Shown here piece after piece: positions 35,739-56,885 of a stretch of 64,000 nucleotides of DNA. The DNA comes from Parcubacteria group bacterium Gr01-1014_31. GTDB taxonomy: Bacteria > Patescibacteriota > Patescibacteriia > Buchananbacterales > GWA2-38-13. The stretch lies in assembly GCA_007376135.1 (NCBI GenBank), contig VMFR01000001.1, positions 379,016 through 443,015 of the forward strand, in the 5' to 3' direction. Below the pieces are notes generated by a model, which made no database searches, was not told the origin of the DNA, and worked only from the letters and a program-made list of their open reading frames with translations. How positions within the stretch are numbered: position 1 is the stretch's first letter; each line of letters opens with the position of its first letter. Made by a program: the position numbers and the translations under genes.

Positions 35739-37022
35739 TCAGATTTCGTCGCTCCGACCGAGCGGAACCGGAAACGTAGCCGCGCTACGGTGAGGATTGC
35801 GCGACCGCCTGCACACCGCGGCGAGCTTGGACGGCGGAAGTTCCAAAAAAACGCGGTGTGGGCTCACCACGACCACGGCGTCAAAACGAAGCGCGGTCTT
35901 CCTTGGATCGGCCACGCCCGCGATCCCCGGGTGGTGGGACAGCTCCTGTTCGGTCAGCAGCGGATCGTAGGCATACACCTTGGCCTTCAGCTTGGCAAAA
36001 CCTTCGACCAACTCGAACGCCCGACTGTTGCGCGTGTCATTGACGTTCTCCTTGAAGGTCAGCCCGAGCATCAGGACCATGGCGTCGCCAATACCGCGGC
36101 CGGCGGCATGCAGCATCGTCACCACCTGGCGCACGATGAACTTGGGCATGTAGTTATTGATCTCGCGCGCGCCCAGAATGAGTTTTGGTTCCAGCCCCTT
36201 GCGCAGCGCTTCATGCACCAGATAGTACGGGTCCACCGCGATGCAGTGGCCGCCCACCAGCCCGGGCGTGAACCGCTGGAAATTCCACTTGGTCGCCGCC
36301 GCCGCGATGACGTCGCGCGTGTCCAGTCCAAGCTTGTCGAATACCAGGGCGAGCTCGTTCATCAGGGCGATGTTGACGTCGCGCTGGATATTTTCCACCA
36401 CCTTGGCTGCTTCCGCGACCTTGATTCCCGGCGCGCGGTAGACCGTGGTGATCTGGCCGTAGACGGCCGCGATCCGTTCCAACGCCGCCGCATCGCGGCC
36501 CGCGACGATCTTCACGATACGATCGATGGCATGCTCGCGGTCGCCCGGGTTGACGCGCTCGGGGGAATAGCCGAGCTGGAAATCCTTGTCCGCGGTGAAC
36601 CCCGACTCCCGTTCCAGGATCGGCAGGCAGATATCCTCCGTGCAGCCCGGGTGCACCGTGCTCTCGTAGACCACCATCGCCCCGCGCTGCAAATACTTGC
36701 CGACCATGGCCGAGGCCTGCTCGACAAAACTGAAGTCCGGCACGTTGTTGACCGTCACGGGGGTCGGCACCGCGATGATGATGAAACTGGCCTTGGCAAT
36801 AACCGCAGGGTCGGCGCTGAACTGTACCGCGCATTCCTTCAGATCGCCGACCTCGCCGGTCGGGTCAATGCCCTGGCGGAGCTTGGCGATCTTTTCCTTA
36901 TTGCTGTCATACCCGTGCACCTTGAACTTACGGGAAAGCAGGGACGCCAGCGGCAGCCCGACGTAGCCCAAACCGACCACGCACACGGTTTCCGGTCCTC
37001 GCTGCGGTGGATTTTTTGGCAT
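35739..37022 (-). CDS. Nucleotide-sugar 6-dehydrogenase (UDP-glucose / UDP-GlcNAc 6-dehydrogenase, TviB/WbpA/Ugd family)
   Basis: VCVVGLGYVGLPLASLL...VHGYDSNKEKIAKLRQGIDP...IIIAVPTPV. ORF-track start 37133 is a spurious extension; ATG 37022 (MPKNPPQRG) is preferred. Confidence 0.85.
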   Translation of the reverse strand: MPKNPPQRGPETVCVVGLGYVGLPLASLLSRKFKVHGYDSNKEKIAKLRQGIDPTGEVGDLKECAVQFSADPAVIAKASFIIIAVPTPVTVNNVPDFSFVEQASAMVGKYLQRGAMVVYESTVHPGCTEDICLPILERESGFTADKDFQLGYSPERVNPGDREHAIDRIVKIVAGRDAAALERIAAVYGQITTVYRAPGIKVAEAAKVVENIQRDVNIALMNELALVFDKLGLDTRDVIAAAATKWNFQRFTPGLVGGHCIAVDPYYLVHEALRKGLEPKLILGAREINNYMPKFIVRQVVTMLHAAGRGIGDAMVLMLGLTFKENVNDTRNSRAFELVEGFAKLKAKVYAYDPLLTEQELSHHPGIAGVADPRKTALRFDAVVVVSPHRVFLELPPSKLAAVCRRSRNPHRSAATFPVPLGRSDEI

Positions 37023-37046
37023 ATACAAAAAAGGCTTTTCGGCCAA

Positions 37047-37076
37047 ACTATACCACAAAACCGATAAGTTTTGCAA
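37047..37076 (-). promoter_or_regulatory. Sigma70-like promoter (TTGCAA-N18-TATAGT) upstream of the sugar dehydrogenase gene
   Basis: Minus-strand reading cTTGCAAaacttatcggttttgtggTATAGTttgg, about 25 nt upstream of ATG 37022. Confidence 0.4.
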
Positions 37077-37093
37077 GATTAAGCCGAAATCAG

Positions 37094-37127
37094 AAAACCG
37101 CCGCCCACGGGATATGGACGGCGGCTC
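37094..37127 (-). terminator. Probable rho-independent terminator after the 700-aa hypothetical gene
   Basis: Minus-strand reading CCGCCG...(14 nt)...CGGCGG followed by TTTT. Confidence 0.35.
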
Positions 37128-37144
37128 ATTCATCCTCCCACTAC

Positions 37145-39247
37145 CTATGGTGACCCAAATCCACCAAAGCCTCCGCTCGGCGGCTGAAACCCTGGTCCCA
37201 TAGTATTGCCCGGCATGCCAGTATTCCCAAACCCTTCCGTCGGAGCAAGCCCCTCGGGGGCTGCGCCGCTCCTGCTAGGACCGCGGAATGCATCGGGCAC
37301 ATCGTACTGATACGGCTTTTCATTGACCTTTATCTCCGTTTCGTACTCATGCAGACCGGTGATCTCCGCCAGAGCGTCGCGGAGTTCCTCGCGGGTCAGG
37401 TACACATCCTCCACCAGCGCCACCAGATCTTCGCCGCTCGCACCGTCTTTGAGCGCCTGCTGCACGGCCGCAATATCTTCCTTGAGCTGGGCAACGAGCG
37501 CTTTCGCCGCACTGACATCTTCGCCCTTTTTCTCGTAGCCGGTCAGCTGCCGTTCAATGGTGCGCAGTTCGCGGTTCAAAACCGTCATCCCCTGCCGGGC
37601 GTTGAGTGCGGCCTCCACCGCCGCAAGGGTATTGTGCGCCTCCTCCACTGCCGCGTGGAACTCATCCAACGAGTCTTCCGCTTTCTCCACGTCGGTCGTC
37701 GCCAGCCCCGGGAGCTGGTCGGCCAGTTGCTGGGCGGCGTTCATTTTCTCTTCCGCGGCCTTGGCCAGCGCGATAACCGAGTCGTTCTTGCTGCGCTGGG
37801 CTTTGCCGTTGACGGTCTTGAACCGCCGCTGCAGGTTCTTCATCACCGTCTTTACCCGCTTGAGCTGCTCGCAGACCATGATGCGCTGCGGTATCTCCTC
37901 ACCCGCCTGTTGCATCCGCTCGCCGGCTTCCTGCGCCGTTTCCATCGCCTCCATGACCTCGTCAAAGCTCTGCGCAGCTTTGATCTTCGGAATGGCCTGT
38001 TCCATGGCGGCAAGTGCTTCCTCCAGCCCTTCCGGGAGCGACATCTTGCAGGCCTGCAGTTTCTTAACCGCCAGCCTCATCCCTTGGCGCATGAACTTCA
38101 CCCCCTGCTGCATACCCTTGGCTCCCTGCTGCATCTGCTTAAGTTGGTCGGTCTGCATGCGCTGGAAATCCTCTTCGCTCGGTCCCTGGAATCCCGGCCC
38201 GCCGGGACCAAACCCACCGGGACCTCCCGGACCGCCCGGGAACTGTCCCGGTTGCCCCTGAAATCCGCCGGGGGCTTGCCCCGGATACTGACTGCCAGGG
38301 CTGCCGGGAGGAGTGCTGCCGCCGCAATCCTTGGGACAATTCGACTGATTTTCACCCTTCCCCTCATCGCACATCGTATCGCCGCAGATCAACACCTGGC
38401 CGCCCTGACCCAGCAAGGGTATTTGACCGCTGCGCAGCTGTAGGCAGCCGCCGTTCGGGTCACGATAGCCGTTCTCGCCGCACGCGGGGTCGGCGAACAG
38501 CGTGCCGATGCTACCCCCGGGCGGAGGTGTCTGGTACTGGCCCCCGAAGGTCGGCTGCGAATACGGACTTCCCGACGGTATCGCAGCGCCGGAAGGGTAC
38601 GGGCTACCGCCGGGCATCGGGGGTTGCGGGTACGAACCCTCGGGCGGCATCGGGTAATAGTCTGGCGGGGGCGGTGGCACGGGGTAATCACCCGGGGTCG
38701 GCGTTGGTGATGGCGTCGCCTGGCTATCCTGGGCCAGCAGCGTGCTTACGCCGCGTACCTGCCCAAGCCTGGTACCGAGCACCTGGTAATCGACGGAGGA
38801 GCGGTTCTCCTCCGACTGCTGGGCAACGGCGATCCGCAACGACTGCCCGTCCCGCGCCCACAACGCTTCCGTGTCCTGCTGCACCACCGGTTCCCAACAA
38901 TCCGCCGCCAGCTCCGCCGCATAGTAGGCCATCACCTGCTCGGCCTGGGAGCGTACGGTGTACTGGCTGAAGCCACCGCCTTGATAATTCAACCGGACCG
39001 CATCCGGCAACCGCGGTACGGCAACCCCTAGGCCGCCGACGGTCAGTCCCTGCGTTGACCTGGGTACGCACACCCGCTCGGCCACGGCTGCAGGTTCAGG
39101 ACGGAAGAACACCAGGACGAACACGCGCGGACGGCTCGCGCTGGCATGGTCGGCGGCCGTCATCCCCATGGAGATGGTGATAACCGCGAGACCAACCGCC
39201 GCAACCACCCCCATATAGGCCTTCAGCAATACGTGCGTCCCGTGCAT
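37145..39247 (-). CDS. Secreted/membrane-anchored modular protein of unknown function (Pro-rich linker, 8-Cys module, Gly/Pro-rich segments, long coiled-coil)
   Basis: N-terminal hydrophobic anchor; PSPTPTPGDYPVPPPPPDYYPMPP; CGENGYRDPNGGCLQ...ICGDTMCDEGKGENQSNCPKDCGG; then about 300 aa of helical heptad-like Ala/Glu/Gln/Lys-rich sequence; G/P-rich C-terminus. Confidence 0.5.
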   Translation of the reverse strand: MHGTHVLLKAYMGVVAAVGLAVITISMGMTAADHASASRPRVFVLVFFRPEPAAVAERVCVPRSTQGLTVGGLGVAVPRLPDAVRLNYQGGGFSQYTVRSQAEQVMAYYAAELAADCWEPVVQQDTEALWARDGQSLRIAVAQQSEENRSSVDYQVLGTRLGQVRGVSTLLAQDSQATPSPTPTPGDYPVPPPPPDYYPMPPEGSYPQPPMPGGSPYPSGAAIPSGSPYSQPTFGGQYQTPPPGGSIGTLFADPACGENGYRDPNGGCLQLRSGQIPLLGQGGQVLICGDTMCDEGKGENQSNCPKDCGGSTPPGSPGSQYPGQAPGGFQGQPGQFPGGPGGPGGFGPGGPGFQGPSEEDFQRMQTDQLKQMQQGAKGMQQGVKFMRQGMRLAVKKLQACKMSLPEGLEEALAAMEQAIPKIKAAQSFDEVMEAMETAQEAGERMQQAGEEIPQRIMVCEQLKRVKTVMKNLQRRFKTVNGKAQRSKNDSVIALAKAAEEKMNAAQQLADQLPGLATTDVEKAEDSLDEFHAAVEEAHNTLAAVEAALNARQGMTVLNRELRTIERQLTGYEKKGEDVSAAKALVAQLKEDIAAVQQALKDGASGEDLVALVEDVYLTREELRDALAEITGLHEYETEIKVNEKPYQYDVPDAFRGPSRSGAAPEGLAPTEGFGNTGMPGNTMGPGFQPPSGGFGGFGSP

Positions 39248-39497
39248 AAAAAAATTGCGAAAAACAAAACCCCCGCCAATAGCAGGGGTCTATTTAAAGA
39301 CAGCGAAAGACAAGGTGTATACTGCAGCAAGGCACTGTGGATAACCACCTTGCATAAATTTAATTACAGTATAGCATTTTTTTTCACCGCATAGTAGCGA
39401 AGCTACGCGAATAATTACGCCATATTTTTCCTCTCACGGATACCGCTGCCAGCTCTTACGGTCCGGCCGCGCCCGTGCGATACTACCTCTATCGATT

Positions 39498-44117: not shown

Positions 44118-47100
44118 TTAGGGGTAGTTGAAGGTGGCGTCCGTCGAGGTGGCGTTCAAACGCGAGGTCGCGCTGGCGCCACTCTTGACGCGGTAACCGT
44201 TGAACCATTGCTCGGAAGTGGTCGCCGTGCCCGAGGCAACGCCGACTGCCCCCATGATGGAGGCATCACTCCAGATGAAGTGGTTCTTGTTGTCCTGGTT
44301 ACCGGTGTAGAGCAGCAATGCGCTGTCCGGGTAGGTGGACGTCGCGTTGGACGCGCCGCCCGGGAAAGCCGCATCGCCGAGGAACGACAGTTCCAACACA
44401 CCGAAGCCGCTGGTCCCACCGCAACCGCCATCAGCCCAGCAGGCCAAGTCACCCTTGAGGGTGAAGACCTTGGACTGACCGGCGATGACGCGGTAGGGAG
44501 AAACGGTCAGGTTGCCCGCCGCCGGCGCATTGCCGTCGGAGGTGAACCACAGCAGGAACACATCGTCCCGGCGGGAGTTCGTGACCGTCATGGTCTGCGC
44601 AGCGGTCGTCGTCGCGGCGATCTGCTGCGAACCATCCACGTAGATCTTCGGATTGGTCAACGTCGCGCGCTGCTGCGAGACCAGGAAGCCGACCTGGAAC
44701 AGGTAGACGTCACCGGCCGAGTCAGCCGCCACGCGGAACTTGTACAGGTCCTTGTTGGACCCGGACGTCAGCTTGCCCGGCACCAGTTTGTCGGAGCCGA
44801 GGTCGCCGTTGACCGTGACGGTCGGGACAGTGTGCATCACCGCCCAGTCGTTCAGGGTCGCACCACTCAAGGTGATCGCGGACGCAGCCAGCGTGGTGCC
44901 CGACTGGGCGCCTTTGGCCGTAACGTCCAAGGCGGCGTTGACCGTGAGCGTGAAGCCCTGGCCCGGGTCGCCGGTGGACGCCTGCGGATACCGCGTCACA
45001 GCGTTGGTGTCGATCTTGACCAAGATGTCCTTGGCCGCCGACGTCGTGACCATGATCGGGTTGGAGGTCACGTCGATGAGGACGGTGACGCGGCCCGAGA
45101 CGTTGGTCGTGGTCGGTTGCACGCCGCCCTCCGGGGTCAATCGGGTGCCACCATCGTACAGGTGGATGGCCCGGATCTGGTTGAAGGCGCTCTTGGTATT
45201 GCCCGTCGTGAGGTTGCGGGTCGAGGTGGCAGAAAGGTAGATCTTTTCCACCTTAATGGTCTCGCGCACCGACGTCATGCGGAAGATACCGGCCTCCAGA
45301 CCGGAGGTGTTGGCCGGCATCAGGCCAGCCTGGTAGTTCTGCGTCAACGCGGCAATCGTCAGGGTGCCGCCCGACTGCAGGGTCATGGTCTGACCGTCAC
45401 CCACGCTCAGCGTCACGGTCGCCGACTGGCCCGAGTCCTTGCCCGTGGCCGAGAACTGGCTGCCGGTCGCGTGCGGGGTAGGCAAACCAACGCGGATGCT
45501 GCCGGAGGTTGCCGCCGAGCTGACGTTGGCAATGACCTTGATGGTCTTGACCGTGCCCTTCGTCAGGATGAGCGGGTTGACGAACACGAACGTGGTCGTC
45601 GCGCCGCCAGCGGTTGCGCCGGTCGGGTCCGGGCTGGACGAGGTCTGCAGCGTAGTGGAGCCGTCCATGATGCGCCAGTTGGTGAAACCGTTGGGCGCCT
45701 GCGTCACGGTGAACAGCTCGGACTTCATCTGCGTGACCTTGATGTCCTCGCCGGAATCCGCGGCATCAAGCCGGAATTCGGCAAAGACCCAGTCCTGCGA
45801 ACCGCCAACGACGTTCTGCGCCACCGGCGTGTTGGAGACGGATACCGCCATCGCCGCGGTCTTCACCGTGTAGATGGCAGAGGTCTGCACGCCTGCCGGC
45901 GTCTTGTCGGCGGCCACCAGCGTTTCCCCCGTGTCCTGACCCTTGACGGTCATGGCGGTCGGGTGAATGCGCGCGCGGATCGTGTCATTCGCGCCGAAGT
46001 CTGCGTTCAGATCACCCTTAACGGTGATCGTGTGCACGCCCGGCGGCAGAATGAAGTTATCCGTGATGGTGGCAGTACCATATTCATCGGTCGCGGTATC
46101 CTCACCGATGTGGTCGGACGTCGGATCCACCGGACCACCGAGGACTTTGCCGGCGGAGTCCACCAGCTTGACCGAGGTGATGTCGCTGATCCGGGCGCCG
46201 GCCGTGGAGGTAGCCAGACGGAACTGGATACCGACCGACTCGAACGACAGCGATTCACCACGCACGTCAAAGTCGAACTTACCCAAGGTCACCTCTTTGG
46301 TGTCCTCGGCAATGTTCGAGTTGGTTGTGCCCGCAGTGGAACTCACCGCAACCGTCCCGCGGCTGATGGTGATGGTCGCCCCCTGGTTGTGGTAGGGCTC
46401 GCTGCTGTTGTTGAACGTCGGCGTCGGAGAGAACCCGAAGGTCTTGCCGATCGCAATGACGTCGTCCTGCTTCTTGATGTCCCAGCGAATCGTGCGGGCC
46501 GAACCGCTGACGATGTCGCCGCGCAGGTTGACCTGCTTGGACTTGCCCTTGGTCAGGACGATGGGGTTGGCGCGCAGGTCGAACGCGGCATCCTTGCTGG
46601 TTGCCTTGGCGACCGTCGCCACCACTACGCCGTCAATGACCAGATCGAGGTTGGTGACATCGCTGTCACCGGCCGTGCCGCCCTGGTTAAAGACGATGCG
46701 GGTCACATTGACGTCTTCGGCCGAACCGGCGGTTACCCGCAGGCCGGTGAAGATGAAGTCGGTGGTGCCGATCTTCTGCGTCGAATTGGACGGATTGTCC
46801 GAACCCGTCGTGACCGTCAGCGAACCGATGACCACGGTGTTATTCAACGTCTGGTAGTTGCCAAACAGCGGCAAGCCCGCACCGACCTGCACCGTGGAGC
46901 CCTTCATGACGATGGACCTGATGCCCAAGGTCGGGACTTCACCGGCGTAGTTGGTGAGCGCTGCCGCCATGTTGCCGGCAATGATGATCCGGCGGGTCGT
47001 ACCAGCCTTGACCACGATGTCTTCGTTGAAGACCGCCTGGTGGTCAGTGTTGAGGGTCTTGGAGGTGTTGGACAAGCGTGAGTCCGTGTCGGCATCCCAC

Positions 47101-47927
47101 AAAAGGATACCGGCGAACGCGCCGTCCTGGGCCGCGCCGCCGCCGCGCTCCACGACCACCTGATCGATGGTGGCATCACCGTCCGAAGAGGCGGTGAAGT
47201 TCACGATGGTGAACGGGACGCGGATGGCGTTCTGGACCACGATGCCCGAGGCCGGCGTATCCGACGCCAGGGCCAGGGTCAGCGTGGAGCCGACCGGACC
47301 GGTCGGAACGGTGACCGTGCCAGACAGACCCTTATCCGTGCTGATGTCCGGGGACGAAGCCTGCTGTGCCACCCGGTCGAACTCCGAAGCGGAATTGACC
47401 TTCTTGGGGGTCACTCCGTCGGTCTCGACGGCGACGCTGTAGTTGGCGAAGAACGCATCCGGCAGGTCGTTGATCTCCTTGTTCCACATGCTGCCGTACA
47501 GCGCGGTCGCAACGGCTTCCGTGGCGACATGCCACAGGACGCCGCCCTTGGCGACGACGTAGACGCGCGGGTCGGTCGTCACCTTCAACATCTTCGTGCC
47601 GGGCCGGTAGTTGACGTTCCCGCCGATCAAGTAGGATTCCAATTCGGTCTTGGCGATCTCCTTGACGGTCGAGAAGTTGGCGTACCAGGTTTTGTACGTT
47701 TTTTCATCCGGGAAAACGTAACGCTTCCCATTGCTCGCCAGGTAGTAGACCGAACGGCAAGGATCGGTCGGACCGGCAACGCCGACGCACTTGAGTTTGA
47801 TCAAGTCGCCTGGCATTGCCGCGCCCAAGGCGATGGAAACGCCCATCACCCCTACCGACCATGCGATGGTCGTACCGGCTACGGTGTAGGTAAGCGCACG
47901 CTTTACCCGCTTGGTAAAGTTGCTCAT
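44118..47927 (-). CDS. Giant secreted Ser/Thr/Gly/Val-rich beta-repeat surface protein (S-layer/adhesin-like, unknown function)
   Basis: 1269 aa; N-terminal signal/anchor KRALTYTVAGTTIAWSVGVMGVSIALGAAMPG; distinct N-terminal domain (CRSVYYLASNGKRYVFPDEKTYKTWY); then low-Cys Thr/Ser-rich repeated beta-type modules with many N-x-S/T sequons and Thr/Ser clusters. Confidence 0.6.
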   Translation of the reverse strand: MSNFTKRVKRALTYTVAGTTIAWSVGVMGVSIALGAAMPGDLIKLKCVGVAGPTDPCRSVYYLASNGKRYVFPDEKTYKTWYANFSTVKEIAKTELESYLIGGNVNYRPGTKMLKVTTDPRVYVVAKGGVLWHVATEAVATALYGSMWNKEINDLPDAFFANYSVAVETDGVTPKKVNSASEFDRVAQQASSPDISTDKGLSGTVTVPTGPVGSTLTLALASDTPASGIVVQNAIRVPFTIVNFTASSDGDATIDQVVVERGGGAAQDGAFAGILLWDADTDSRLSNTSKTLNTDHQAVFNEDIVVKAGTTRRIIIAGNMAAALTNYAGEVPTLGIRSIVMKGSTVQVGAGLPLFGNYQTLNNTVVIGSLTVTTGSDNPSNSTQKIGTTDFIFTGLRVTAGSAEDVNVTRIVFNQGGTAGDSDVTNLDLVIDGVVVATVAKATSKDAAFDLRANPIVLTKGKSKQVNLRGDIVSGSARTIRWDIKKQDDVIAIGKTFGFSPTPTFNNSSEPYHNQGATITISRGTVAVSSTAGTTNSNIAEDTKEVTLGKFDFDVRGESLSFESVGIQFRLATSTAGARISDITSVKLVDSAGKVLGGPVDPTSDHIGEDTATDEYGTATITDNFILPPGVHTITVKGDLNADFGANDTIRARIHPTAMTVKGQDTGETLVAADKTPAGVQTSAIYTVKTAAMAVSVSNTPVAQNVVGGSQDWVFAEFRLDAADSGEDIKVTQMKSELFTVTQAPNGFTNWRIMDGSTTLQTSSSPDPTGATAGGATTTFVFVNPLILTKGTVKTIKVIANVSSAATSGSIRVGLPTPHATGSQFSATGKDSGQSATVTLSVGDGQTMTLQSGGTLTIAALTQNYQAGLMPANTSGLEAGIFRMTSVRETIKVEKIYLSATSTRNLTTGNTKSAFNQIRAIHLYDGGTRLTPEGGVQPTTTNVSGRVTVLIDVTSNPIMVTTSAAKDILVKIDTNAVTRYPQASTGDPGQGFTLTVNAALDVTAKGAQSGTTLAASAITLSGATLNDWAVMHTVPTVTVNGDLGSDKLVPGKLTSGSNKDLYKFRVAADSAGDVYLFQVGFLVSQQRATLTNPKIYVDGSQQIAATTTAAQTMTVTNSRRDDVFLLWFTSDGNAPAAGNLTVSPYRVIAGQSKVFTLKGDLACWADGGCGGTSGFGVLELSFLGDAAFPGGASNATSTYPDSALLLYTGNQDNKNHFIWSDASIMGAVGVASGTATTSEQWFNGYRVKSGASATSRLNATSTDATFNYP

Positions 47928-48222: not shown

Positions 48223-48290
48223 TCGCCATTGTACCAGGAGAATTAACATTCATAAAACAAACCCTCTTGTGGATAATGGAATATCTCGGC

Positions 48291-49343
48291 TTACGGCAGC
48301 AGCCCCTGGGTCGTCTCACCGGCCAGGTTGTTATCACCGGCGGTCGGCACCGTTTCCGCGGTTGTGGAAGACGTGCCGCCATCGGTTGCCGCCTCCGGGG
48401 CCGCCGCGGGCTTGGCGGGCTCCAACTGCTGGCGCACGCTGTTGATGATACCAAGTGCTTCCGTGAAATTCCCGGCGGCAAGAGCTGCCTGGGCGGTGTC
48501 CAGCGCGTGGGCAAGCGTTGGCGCTGCCACCGCAACGGTGGTCGTCGCAACAGGATCAACTTGCGGTAGTTGCGCGCGCAGACGCTCCACTTTTTCGTTC
48601 AAATAGCGGCGCACGTCATCGGTCGGCAACTCCTGGCTGCTGCTGGCCGTGGCGCTGATGGCCGCCTCCAGGGTGCTGAAACTCGTTTGTTCCGCTGCCA
48701 TTAACGCTTCGTGGACGACCTGGTTCACCTCGTCGCCGCTGCCGCCGTCATTTTGCAGCTGCTGGGCAAGCTCAGTGCCGGCCTGCTCCACGGATACGGC
48801 CATCTTGAACGCGGCGCGCTGGTCGGCCGGCAAGCGCTGCAAGTCCTTCCGCATGGACGCAACCTCCTCGGCAAACCGCGTCACTACGCGGGAAACTTCT
48901 TTGGGCGTACTGCGACGATCGGCCTGGCGGGAGACCAGGTGGCCAAGTTCTTTGACGCGGTTACGCGCGAATTCCAGCTTCAATTCCGCCTTGCGGGTGG
49001 TGTCGCTGACCATCGCCAGCTGGGTGCGCTCGAACGCCAATTTCATCCGGTAGAGCGGCTCGCCCGGCAGGCTATAGAAGGCCGCATTGACCATCAGGCT
49101 ACTGACCATGACCGCGCCCAGCACCGCCACGAAGCTGACCACCGGCTGGCGGACGAACTGGGTAACGGACTGCCAGAACCGCGTCGTCACGCTCCAGGTT
49201 GCGGCTGGCAGCACCACCGGCATTACCTCGCCCTGACGCCGGACTTCCGCCAACAGCAGATCGTGGGTAGCCGAAACCCAGTCGGCCCGAGGGGCGACTT
49301 TTTGCAGCTGACGCAGGGAATCGATGACGTTACGACGGTTCAT
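48291..49343 (-). CDS. Putative anti-sigma factor (single-pass membrane protein downstream of and overlapping the ECF sigma gene)
   Basis: Cytoplasmic N-terminus, one TM helix (VVSFVAVLGAVMVSSLMVNAAFY), Ala/Gln-rich extracytoplasmic domain. 14-nt overlap with the sigma gene. Confidence 0.5.
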   Translation of the reverse strand: MNRRNVIDSLRQLQKVAPRADWVSATHDLLLAEVRRQGEVMPVVLPAATWSVTTRFWQSVTQFVRQPVVSFVAVLGAVMVSSLMVNAAFYSLPGEPLYRMKLAFERTQLAMVSDTTRKAELKLEFARNRVKELGHLVSRQADRRSTPKEVSRVVTRFAEEVASMRKDLQRLPADQRAAFKMAVSVEQAGTELAQQLQNDGGSGDEVNQVVHEALMAAEQTSFSTLEAAISATASSSQELPTDDVRRYLNEKVERLRAQLPQVDPVATTTVAVAAPTLAHALDTAQAALAAGNFTEALGIINSVRQQLEPAKPAAAPEAATDGGTSSTTAETVPTAGDNNLAGETTQGLLP

Positions 49344-56813: not shown

Positions 56814-56885
56814 CGGGGATTAGCGCAGCGGTAGCGCGCTTGGTTCGGGACCAAGAGGCCGGGGGTTCGAATCCCCCATCCCCGA
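56814..56885 (+). tRNA. tRNA-Pro: tRNA-Pro (anticodon CGG)
   Basis: Cloverleaf folded by hand: acceptor CGGGGAT/ATCCCCG, D stem GCGC/GCGC, anticodon stem CTTGG/CCAAG with loop TTCGGGA, T stem GGGGG/CCCCC with loop TTCGAAT, discriminator A; CCA not encoded. Confidence 0.85.

Follow-up and report, generated by a model that had tools for sequence, protein, structure and literature searches.

Three tandem helical repeats in an apparently exported protein of a Parcubacteria group bacterium: a candidate structural component of the cell envelope

The present analysis deals with a 64,000-nucleotide stretch of DNA (contig VMFR01000001.1 of assembly GCA_007376135.1, from Parcubacteria group bacterium Gr01-1014_31, a tiny bacterium of groundwater), referred to below at its full length as the window, and with one gene on its minus strand (37145..39247), a complete coding sequence with an ATG start encoding 700 amino acids (aa), followed by a stop codon. 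Its product, the target protein, appears to be built around a core of three mutually homologous helical repeats and to reside for the most part outside the cytoplasm. Tentatively, it is regarded here as an exported structural protein of the cell envelope acting as a stalk, spacer or tether. A structural envelope or periplasmic scaffold protein had already been suggested in an earlier reading made from the letters alone (the sequence-only reading), and this suggestion gained support from the charge bias around the N-terminal segment, the AxA|Q signal peptides, the co-variation of cysteines (Cys), the even Cys counts and the non-enzymatic repeat core.

The helical region of the target protein spans aa ~356-632. 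Profile-profile comparison with hhalign of three segments taken from a 147-sequence family alignment delineated the repeats R1 (aa 368-453; 37889..38146), R2 (aa 454-547; 37607..37888) and R3 (aa 548-632; 37352..37606; delimited also by the predicted helices), all encoded, as the other features of the gene, on the minus strand. The E values were 1.4e-10 for R1/R2, 2.2e-12 for R1/R3 and 1.3e-13 for R2/R3 (probabilities of 97-98%). The scores were 56-72, whereas none of 30 column-shuffled profiles scored above 17 and no reversed profile above 19. By this comparison, R1-R3 represent mutually homologous tandem repeats of ~93 aa. The AlphaFold2 (AF2) model of the helical domain, run on the helical-domain alignment (A1), reached a predicted local distance difference test score (pLDDT) of 86.4 and a predicted template modeling score (pTM) of 0.64. 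It displays seven helices of 17-58 residues (domain residues 6-46, 56-72, 76-133, 137-166, 168-221, 227-248 and 253-278) parted by turns containing Gly or Pro. When the repeats are mapped on the model, three helices fall into each of them, and helices of 58 and 54 residues cross the R1/R2 and R2/R3 junctions, respectively; as modeled, this continuity of helices across the repeat junctions is a spectrin-like arrangement.

The same region had been taken in the sequence-only reading for about 300 aa of coiled coil, a label that gives way to the seven helices in three homologous repeats. A canonical long coiled coil was rejected in view of the limited length of the helices and the Gly/Pro turns between them; a search of PDB sequences with the helical profile returned just weak matches to short designed coiled coils. 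The conserved domain ends in a C-terminal cap (aa 633-655; 37283..37351) recognized from alignment A1 by the conserved P651 and F654 (“DVPDAFR”), the columns of which show a family-wide conservation of 0.65 and 0.63, respectively; AF2 confidence in the cap is low.

Two cysteines of the core, C400 in the R1 loop that connects helices A and B and C459 in the helix at the R1/R2 junction, are either both present (50 proteins) or both absent (103 proteins) in nearly all of the 156 representative proteins of the family; only three members possess a single one. Since these cysteines co-vary, they are best explained as a putative disulfide staple at the first repeat junction, and their positions are predicted to fall at the same end of the three-helix bundle. 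Judging from the usual length of three-helix bundles, the three repeats would form a rod of an estimated ~13-15 nm.

Evidence on the location of the protein comes from its N-terminus and from the composition of its relatives. The export signal or anchor predicted at aa 1-37 (39137..39247) comprises K9, a hydrophobic core of ~21 aa (aa 12-32) and the A35-S36-A37 triplet before S38; as the sequence-only reading had it, a transmembrane (TM) or signal anchor is present, aa 4-33 being the sole hydrophobic segment of the target protein (Kyte-Doolittle above 1.5). For the 105 representatives that carry a hydrophobic segment at the N-terminus, the net charge of the N-terminal flank is +1.73 and that of the C-terminal flank is -0.38; the former exceeds the latter in 79 representatives and is lower in 16. 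Many family members possess textbook cleavable AxA|Q signal peptides (e.g., ...VLA|QE or ...AFA|QD). Cys counts are even in 101 and odd in 18 of the 119 Cys-containing representatives. Because of the charge bias, the AxA|Q signal peptides, the co-varying or invariant Cys pairs and the even Cys counts, the bulk of the target protein is placed outside the cytoplasm; its N-terminal segment would be a Sec-type signal that may stay in the membrane as an anchor.

A word-indexed search with the whole protein retrieved 11 relatives, the low-complexity words having probably swamped the search. These first-pass homologs share a common plan: a signal or TM segment, an optional N-domain, a variable Pro-/Cys-rich region, the helical domain, which opens with “GPSEEEM” and closes with the “DVPDAFR” mentioned above, and a Gly-rich tail. 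The exhaustive search of 1.84 billion representatives with the helical-domain profile built from A1 yielded 632 matches at E<=1e-3, 514 at E<=1e-10 and 263 at E<=1e-30, almost all of them full length and located close to the C-terminus. An N-terminal hydrophobic segment is found in most of the 156 representatives, and in some of them repeated modules contain as many as 60 Cys.

The phylogenetic distribution, which the sequence-only reading had named among the points to be checked, turned out to be narrow. The source-named members are labeled as Patescibacteria (Parcubacteria group, Uhrbacteria or Patescibacteria group), and all of these proteins bear the name “hypothetical protein”. Likewise, 13 of 15 genome loci have a label of the Patescibacteria type (Uhrbacteria, Falkowbacteria, Kuenenbacteria, Magasanikbacteria, Parcubacteria group or Patescibacteria group), one is titled just “bacterium”, and one is labeled Gammaproteobacteria. 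The latter locus (L021) is a 7-kb contig, CAYJLM010000080.1, of an “uncultured Gammaproteobacteria” metagenome-assembled genome (MAG), where a giant surface protein gene and a family gene form a pair much like that of the Uhrbacteria locus L023; it is probably a misbinned Patescibacteria contig. Apparently, the helical-domain family is specific to Patescibacteria. Pfam and NCBIfam contain no model for the helical domain, literature searches found no description of the family, and the Pfam scan of 10 mainstream members gave scattered, mutually inconsistent sub-threshold matches to helical families. In two members, the rod is followed by another domain, i.e., a Laminin_G_3/ConA-like lectin domain in P0112 (E 6e-27) and a bacterial TSP3 repeat in P0082; judged by their domain order, these fusions present the rod as a stalk for a distal extracellular module. 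Tandem paralogs of the helical-domain gene occur in two loci, L009 (3-1442 and 1480-3711) and L041 (1-2553 and 3113-5122).

The modules preceding and following the core are more variable. The N-domain (aa ~58-160; 38768..39076) is a small module arranged as beta-beta-alpha-beta4, in which the Cys pair C60/C117 is invariant; its hidden Markov model matches 41 of the 156 representatives. The word-indexed homolog search with the N-domain alignment found zero relatives, the PDB sequence search nothing meaningful, and Pfam no match. Next comes the Pro/Tyr/Ser-rich linker delimited by composition (aa 176-250; 38498..38722), which differs in length and content among the homologs; the Pro-rich character ascribed to it from the beginning is confirmed by 25 Pro, 15 Ser plus Thr and 7 Tyr among the 81 residues of aa 170-250.

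The Cys module (aa 254-310; 38318..38488; including the motif CGDTMCDEGKGENQSNCPKDCG) proved to harbor six cysteines, at positions 256, 268, 288, 293, 304 and 308, out of the 10 in the whole protein, and not the eight reported in the sequence-only reading. The motif CGDxMC[DE]xxKGExxxNCPxDCG and the module are common to the homologs P0002, P0003 and P0006, and a more relaxed version of the motif is found in seven of the 156 representatives; Pfam and PDB sequence searches with the module found no counterpart. The cysteine-knot-like label that the sequence-only reading gave to the module found no confirmation. A different, two-Cys mini-motif of 12 residues, C-x-V-N-G-V-E-M-P-G-x-C, is present in 12 of the 156 representatives, before the helical domain in eight cases and after it in four, e.g., in P0002 (aa 834), P0006 (aa 478), P0009 (aa 275) and P0010 (aa 312) and also in the C-terminal fragment of L024; the target protein lacks it.

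Between the Cys module and the core lies a low-complexity segment rich in Gly, Pro, Gln and Phe (aa 311-355; 38183..38317), with 19 Gly, 12 Pro and 6 Gln per 47 aa; its “GQPGQFPGGPGG” stretch is kept in the homologs. The G-P-G-G runs in it had been called collagen-like, a designation that does not fit, the longest G-X-Y run being five triplets (aa 338-352) and Pfam Collagen (PF01391) having no match at E<=1 in the target protein. The sole DNA-level repeat at this segment is a 9-nucleotide (nt) unit in 2.2 copies, and an origin of the low-complexity segments from DNA tandem repeats was rejected on this ground. The chain ends in a Gly-rich tail (aa 656-700; 37148..37282; 14 Gly and 8 Pro in 46 aa), and Gly/Pro-rich tails are widespread in the family. 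Thus, the list of modules given in the sequence-only reading holds for the TM or signal segment, the Pro-rich linker, a Cys module, the Gly/Pro segments and a helical region of ~300 aa, and is amended as to the number of cysteines and the collagen-like and coiled-coil labels.

As a mechanism, the following can be proposed. The N-terminal Sec-type signal, perhaps retained as an anchor, would take the remaining chain outside the cytoplasm in the order of a disulfide-containing alpha/beta domain, the Pro-rich linker, the 6-Cys module, the Gly/Pro/Gln-rich segment, the core and the Gly-rich tail. The three repeats would build a stiff rod, and the Pro- and Gly-rich segments would serve as flexible tethers. 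Such a rod could operate as a stalk, spacer or tether in or beyond the wall and the surface layer, positioning whatever sits at its ends or bridging membrane and surface-layer components. In the clade of the target, the gene is encoded in a surface-glycan/surface-protein cluster, and O-glycosylation of the Ser/Thr/Pro-rich linker may occur: glycosylation of the target protein itself is possible, because this linker is accompanied by two PMT_2 genes in the cluster.

The open reading frame (ORF) represents a real gene. It figures in the ORF list, the homolog search returned an identical protein along with 10 homologs, and the GC content by codon position (0.69/0.48/0.75; genome GC 61%) is typical of a coding frame. 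The identical NCBI protein belongs to the MAG “Parcubacteria group bacterium Gr01-1014_31”, and the E values of the homologs go down to 1.8e-163. The sequence-only reading had conceded that the frame might be an artefact if a conserved protein were encoded antisense; the plus-strand ORFs at 37349-38443 and 37557-38261 matched no family in a Pfam scan, and an antisense-gene artefact was rejected. No curated family of Pfam or NCBIfam matched the target protein above threshold. By every library searched, the protein appears to be modular and non-enzymatic. The NCBI record names it “SH3 type 3 domain-containing protein”, a name (PF08239) not supported by the Pfam and NCBIfam searches, in which no SH3 family appeared at E<=1.

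As for the genomic context, the location of the gene between a GT4 array and a divergent GT4, pointed out in the sequence-only reading, is borne out by the gene content of the window. Downstream of the target gene lie a UDP-sugar dehydrogenase gene and then six GT4 genes and PMT_2; upstream are the divergent GT4, followed by GT2, TPR, PMT_2, a 1,269-aa Thr/Ser-rich protein and a DUF5667 protein. Related loci were found with a tighter alignment (A3), and their neighbors were compared over 22 and then over 43 dereplicated loci. The locus of the closest homolog (L001) is fully syntenic and L008 and L009 are partly so; glycosyltransferase neighbors are restricted to this close clade, i.e., the window, L001, L008 and L009. 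The homologs with 25-27% identity adjoin genes of ribonucleotide reductase (RNR), riboflavin synthesis, major facilitator superfamily (MFS) transporters, NUDIX and L31/RF1.

Another layout was seen in five of the 43 loci (L018, L019, L021, L023 and L039), where a gene encoding a large surface protein (at least ~1,400 aa) is followed after 21-92 nt by the co-oriented gene of a short family member. The giant genes are located at 284-6730 in L018, 36-6326 in L019, 11-5359 in L021 and 553-6561 in L023, and upstream of 4301 in L039; they are probably co-transcribed with the adjoining family gene. All four of the giant neighbors scanned with Pfam (1,782-2,148 aa; those of L018, L019, L021 and L023) contain CarboxypepD_reg repeats, and three of them contain Big_5, fn3 and C-terminal PG_binding_1, the protein of L018 being devoid of all three.

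The 1,269-aa protein of the window (44118-47927, minus strand) is rich in Thr, Ser and Gly, carries a hydrophobic segment at its N-terminus, has no match in Pfam and is 69% identical to its 1,266-aa counterpart in L001. The window and L001 both also encode PMT_2, GT2 and GT4 genes, and the protein is a candidate surface-layer glycoprotein. Just upstream of its gene, the DUF5667 protein (48291-49343, minus strand) has its N-terminal region in the cytoplasm, followed by a TM segment, a helical domain and a tail rich in Thr, Ala and Pro. Kinship of the helical domain of the target with DUF5667 (PF18915) was rejected (hhalign probability 0.1%, E 0.41; no DUF5667 match in the target protein). Elsewhere in the window, the only Rfam match at gathering threshold is a single tRNA gene (56814-56885, plus strand).

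In the sequence-only reading, the target gene had been described as flanked by promoter and terminator elements. The terminator was found: a hairpin with a 14-bp stem (8 GC pairs) and a T-run, resembling an intrinsic terminator, lies directly after the stop codon (37095..37127, minus strand), and in L001 the homolog is followed by a hairpin of this kind. On the promoter side, the consensus scan for a sigma-70-type promoter upstream of the gene called none, though an extended -10-like element, TGCTATACT, can be read from the sequence as a putative promoter (39368..39376, minus strand); the L001 and L008 homologs are likewise preceded by a TGnTATAnT-like element. The downstream ORF (35739..37133, minus strand; UDP-glucose/GDP-mannose dehydrogenase) overlaps the terminator hairpin, its Pfam domains begin at residue 49, and its internal Met (MPKNPP, ~nt 37022) corresponds to the position at which the ortholog in L001 begins (MPKPQK). 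Probably, this ORF is 37 codons too long and truly starts at ~37022. Between the hairpin and the internal Met, there is a promoter-like TTGCAA-18-TATAGT (37076-37047), and the order of a terminator and then a promoter also follows the homolog in L001. From its own terminator, the putative promoter and the promoter-like element of the dehydrogenase, the target gene therefore appears to be a monocistronic unit outside the GT4 operon.

The 5' leader of the target gene, where no obvious Shine-Dalgarno sequence was seen, contains a hairpin followed by a U-run (39267..39291, minus strand; fold z-score -2.3) 20 nt upstream of the ATG. No Rfam family matched the leader at gathering or permissive thresholds. 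The hairpin might serve in attenuation or in the control of translation; L001 carries a comparable element, “GGGTTTTTT”, partly masked by N. Farther upstream, a 9-mer of the DnaA-box consensus, TTATCCACA, was noticed. The window contains two copies where 0.12 would be expected (two were reached in 3 of 100 shuffles); both are intergenic and precede genes of large exported proteins, at 39336-39344 (minus strand) upstream of the target gene and at 48268-48276 (minus strand) upstream of the gene of the 1,269-aa protein. In the form GGTTATCCACA(A/G)T, the same 9-mer is found upstream of the target homologs in L001 (9869-9877) and L008 (3396-3404); in L003-L006 it precedes the RNR operon instead (L003 3372-3380). 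It could be a regulator-binding site.

Several considerations weigh against the interpretation of the target protein as a stalk, spacer or tether of the envelope. The helical-domain family is not linked to any function by experiment or by an annotated homolog, and no neighbor gene is conserved family-wide over the 43 dereplicated loci. Giant neighbors occur only in a subclade whose members are short forms, and the 1,269-aa protein of the window is not homologous to these giant proteins. The C400-C459 disulfide is deduced from co-variation, and the packing of the repeats and the length of the rod derive from the string of secondary structures and the repeat mapping, the pTM of the model being just 0.64. 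Finally, the hydrophobic core of the target is long, and its N-terminal segment could be either a cleaved signal, with a soluble product, or a retained anchor.

Patescibacteria are commonly episymbionts, and the protein might instead be a host-attachment adhesin, i.e., a surface fibril, the distal rod and Gly-rich tail of which bind the host or partner cell. Such a role seems unlikely, albeit worth serious consideration: the Cys- and Pro-rich modules differ widely from homolog to homolog, as surface proteins under diversifying pressure usually do, and one relative ends in the ConA-like lectin domain. However, conservation across the 632 clusters is highest in the distal helical domain, a pattern that fits a conserved self component better than variable host ligands, and the target possesses no recognizable binding domain. 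A place in the local glycosylation machinery, either as a membrane scaffold for GT4, GT2 and PMT_2 or as a dedicated glycoprotein product of the cluster, is suggested by the position of the gene between the six GT4 with the UDP-sugar dehydrogenase and the divergent GT4, with GT2, TPR and PMT_2 nearby, by the recurrence of this layout in L001 and, in part, in L008 and L009, and by the abundance of Ser, Thr and Pro in the linker. Nevertheless, the target gene has a terminator of its own and the dehydrogenase its own promoter-like element, the relatives of 25-27% identity and the mainstream family are found away from glycosyltransferases, and the GT4 enzymes are cytoplasmic while the bulk of the target is exported; this possibility is considered rather improbable. 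Support for the idea, voiced in the sequence-only reading, that the protein is glycosylated or organizes the assembly complex does not extend beyond the local synteny, which is a trait of the close clade.

The two remaining alternatives concern the nature of the helical domain. Were it an extracytoplasmic ligand-binding or chaperone-like domain (an HBM/TorS-type sensor or a Spy/Skp-like holdase) and not a structural rod, one would explain the weak Pfam HBM match at aa 406-580 (E 0.0031, 17.4 bits) and the TorS sensor domain retrieved by Foldseek at E 0.23 and by Pfam in one of the 10 mainstream members. These matches fall short of the curated thresholds and differ from member to member, the target has no second TM segment or signaling output domain, and its three homologous ~93-aa repeats differ from the double four-helix bundle of HBM, making this option quite unlikely. 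Least probable, to the point of being nearly dismissed, is a cytoplasmic division or cytoskeletal regulator of the EzrA type, with an N-terminal TM anchor and spectrin-like repeats facing the cytoplasm. It is brought to mind by sub-threshold Pfam EzrA matches in P0006 and two of the 10 mainstream members (best E 7.3e-5) and by the outline of the short family members, where an N-terminal hydrophobic segment is followed by helical repeats. The charge bias is, however, opposite to that expected of an N-out/C-in anchor; the cleavable AxA|Q signal peptides of many members, the co-varying Cys pair, the even Cys counts and the abundance of Cys (up to 60) in some members also contradict it, and the Pfam EzrA scores are under the 39.6-bit cut-off.

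The stalk, spacer or tether interpretation can be carried a step further. The three-repeat domain would then be an independently arisen “extracellular spectrin-like” strut and the missing connector of the membrane to the surface layer or to giant wall-bound proteins in Parcubacteria-type Patescibacteria, i.e., a functional analogue of archaeal SlaB. This bolder version is deemed improbable; if true, it would make the helical domain a core determinant of the unusual envelope of the candidate phyla radiation (CPR).

Patescibacteria account for a large share of bacterial diversity, and their envelope proteins are almost entirely unassigned. Against this background, one “hypothetical protein” has become a defined, searchable domain family of 632 representative clusters lacking a Pfam model, and a misleading database name (SH3 type 3) has been corrected. 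The family supplies candidate envelope stalks or tethers together with their possible partners, such as the giant peptidoglycan-binding proteins encoded upstream in some lineages. As the function is inferred, the present value of these findings lies in annotation and hypotheses rather than in a new mechanism.

Among the known systems, the N-domain alone may resemble, at no more than the level of the fold (DcrB/Mog1/PsbP-like), the periplasmic lipoproteins DcrB and PA1624 (PDB 6e8a and 6td9), the functions of which are poorly defined; the identity is 6-13%, with no Pfam or PDB sequence match. The HBM and TorS periplasmic sensor domains (PF16591 and PF21689) share with the core of the target an extracytoplasmic, all-helical nature, a size of ~250-300 aa and weak sequence and fold matches. 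They consist of two stacked four-helix bundles, in contrast to the internal three-repeat organization of the target, which remains below the HBM threshold of 29.8 bits and has one hydrophobic segment and no other Pfam domain.

In archaea, slaB encodes the membrane anchor of the S-layer (surface layer; PMC6805947). The likeness of the target to SlaB is a functional analogy alone: a helical stalk is proposed to join the membrane and the surface layer, and some family genes are situated directly downstream of giant surface proteins, the link to a surface layer being one of gene adjacency in a subclade only. SlaB differs from the target in having a C-terminal TM anchor and a long coiled coil.

Closer in architecture are the spectrin repeats (PF00435) and their bacterial example EzrA (PDB 4uxv), with which the target shares tandem homologous repeats, here of ~93 aa, of three predicted helices each, the last helix being continuous with the one that opens the following repeat. 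PF00435 was matched in one of the 10 mainstream members (E 0.0013); in the target, the search for it above threshold yielded only the related Spectrin_Anc-1 at E 0.065 and 14 bits, and neither the profile threshold nor the cytoplasmic location of EzrA (PF06160) applies to the target. Spectrin and EzrA are cytoplasmic, whereas the target appears to be exported with a likely disulfide; it also differs from spectrin in having three repeats only and Gly/Pro-rich low-complexity flanks.

Ebh/Embp of staphylococci and Fap1 of streptococci (PDB 6gv5, 3rgu and 2kub) are extracellular stiff rods of connected three-helix bundles. The target resembles them as an apparently exported surface protein with predicted three-helix bundles in a string, but it contains no FIVAR, GA or other Pfam match, is attached by an N-terminal signal or anchor instead of a C-terminal LPXTG motif or membrane anchor, and has far fewer repeats of an unrelated sequence family. 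Judged by sequence, the repeat family of the target matches none of these proteins; the architecture it is predicted to adopt, a rod of three-helix bundles, is one already known from spectrin, EzrA, Ebh/Embp and Fap1.

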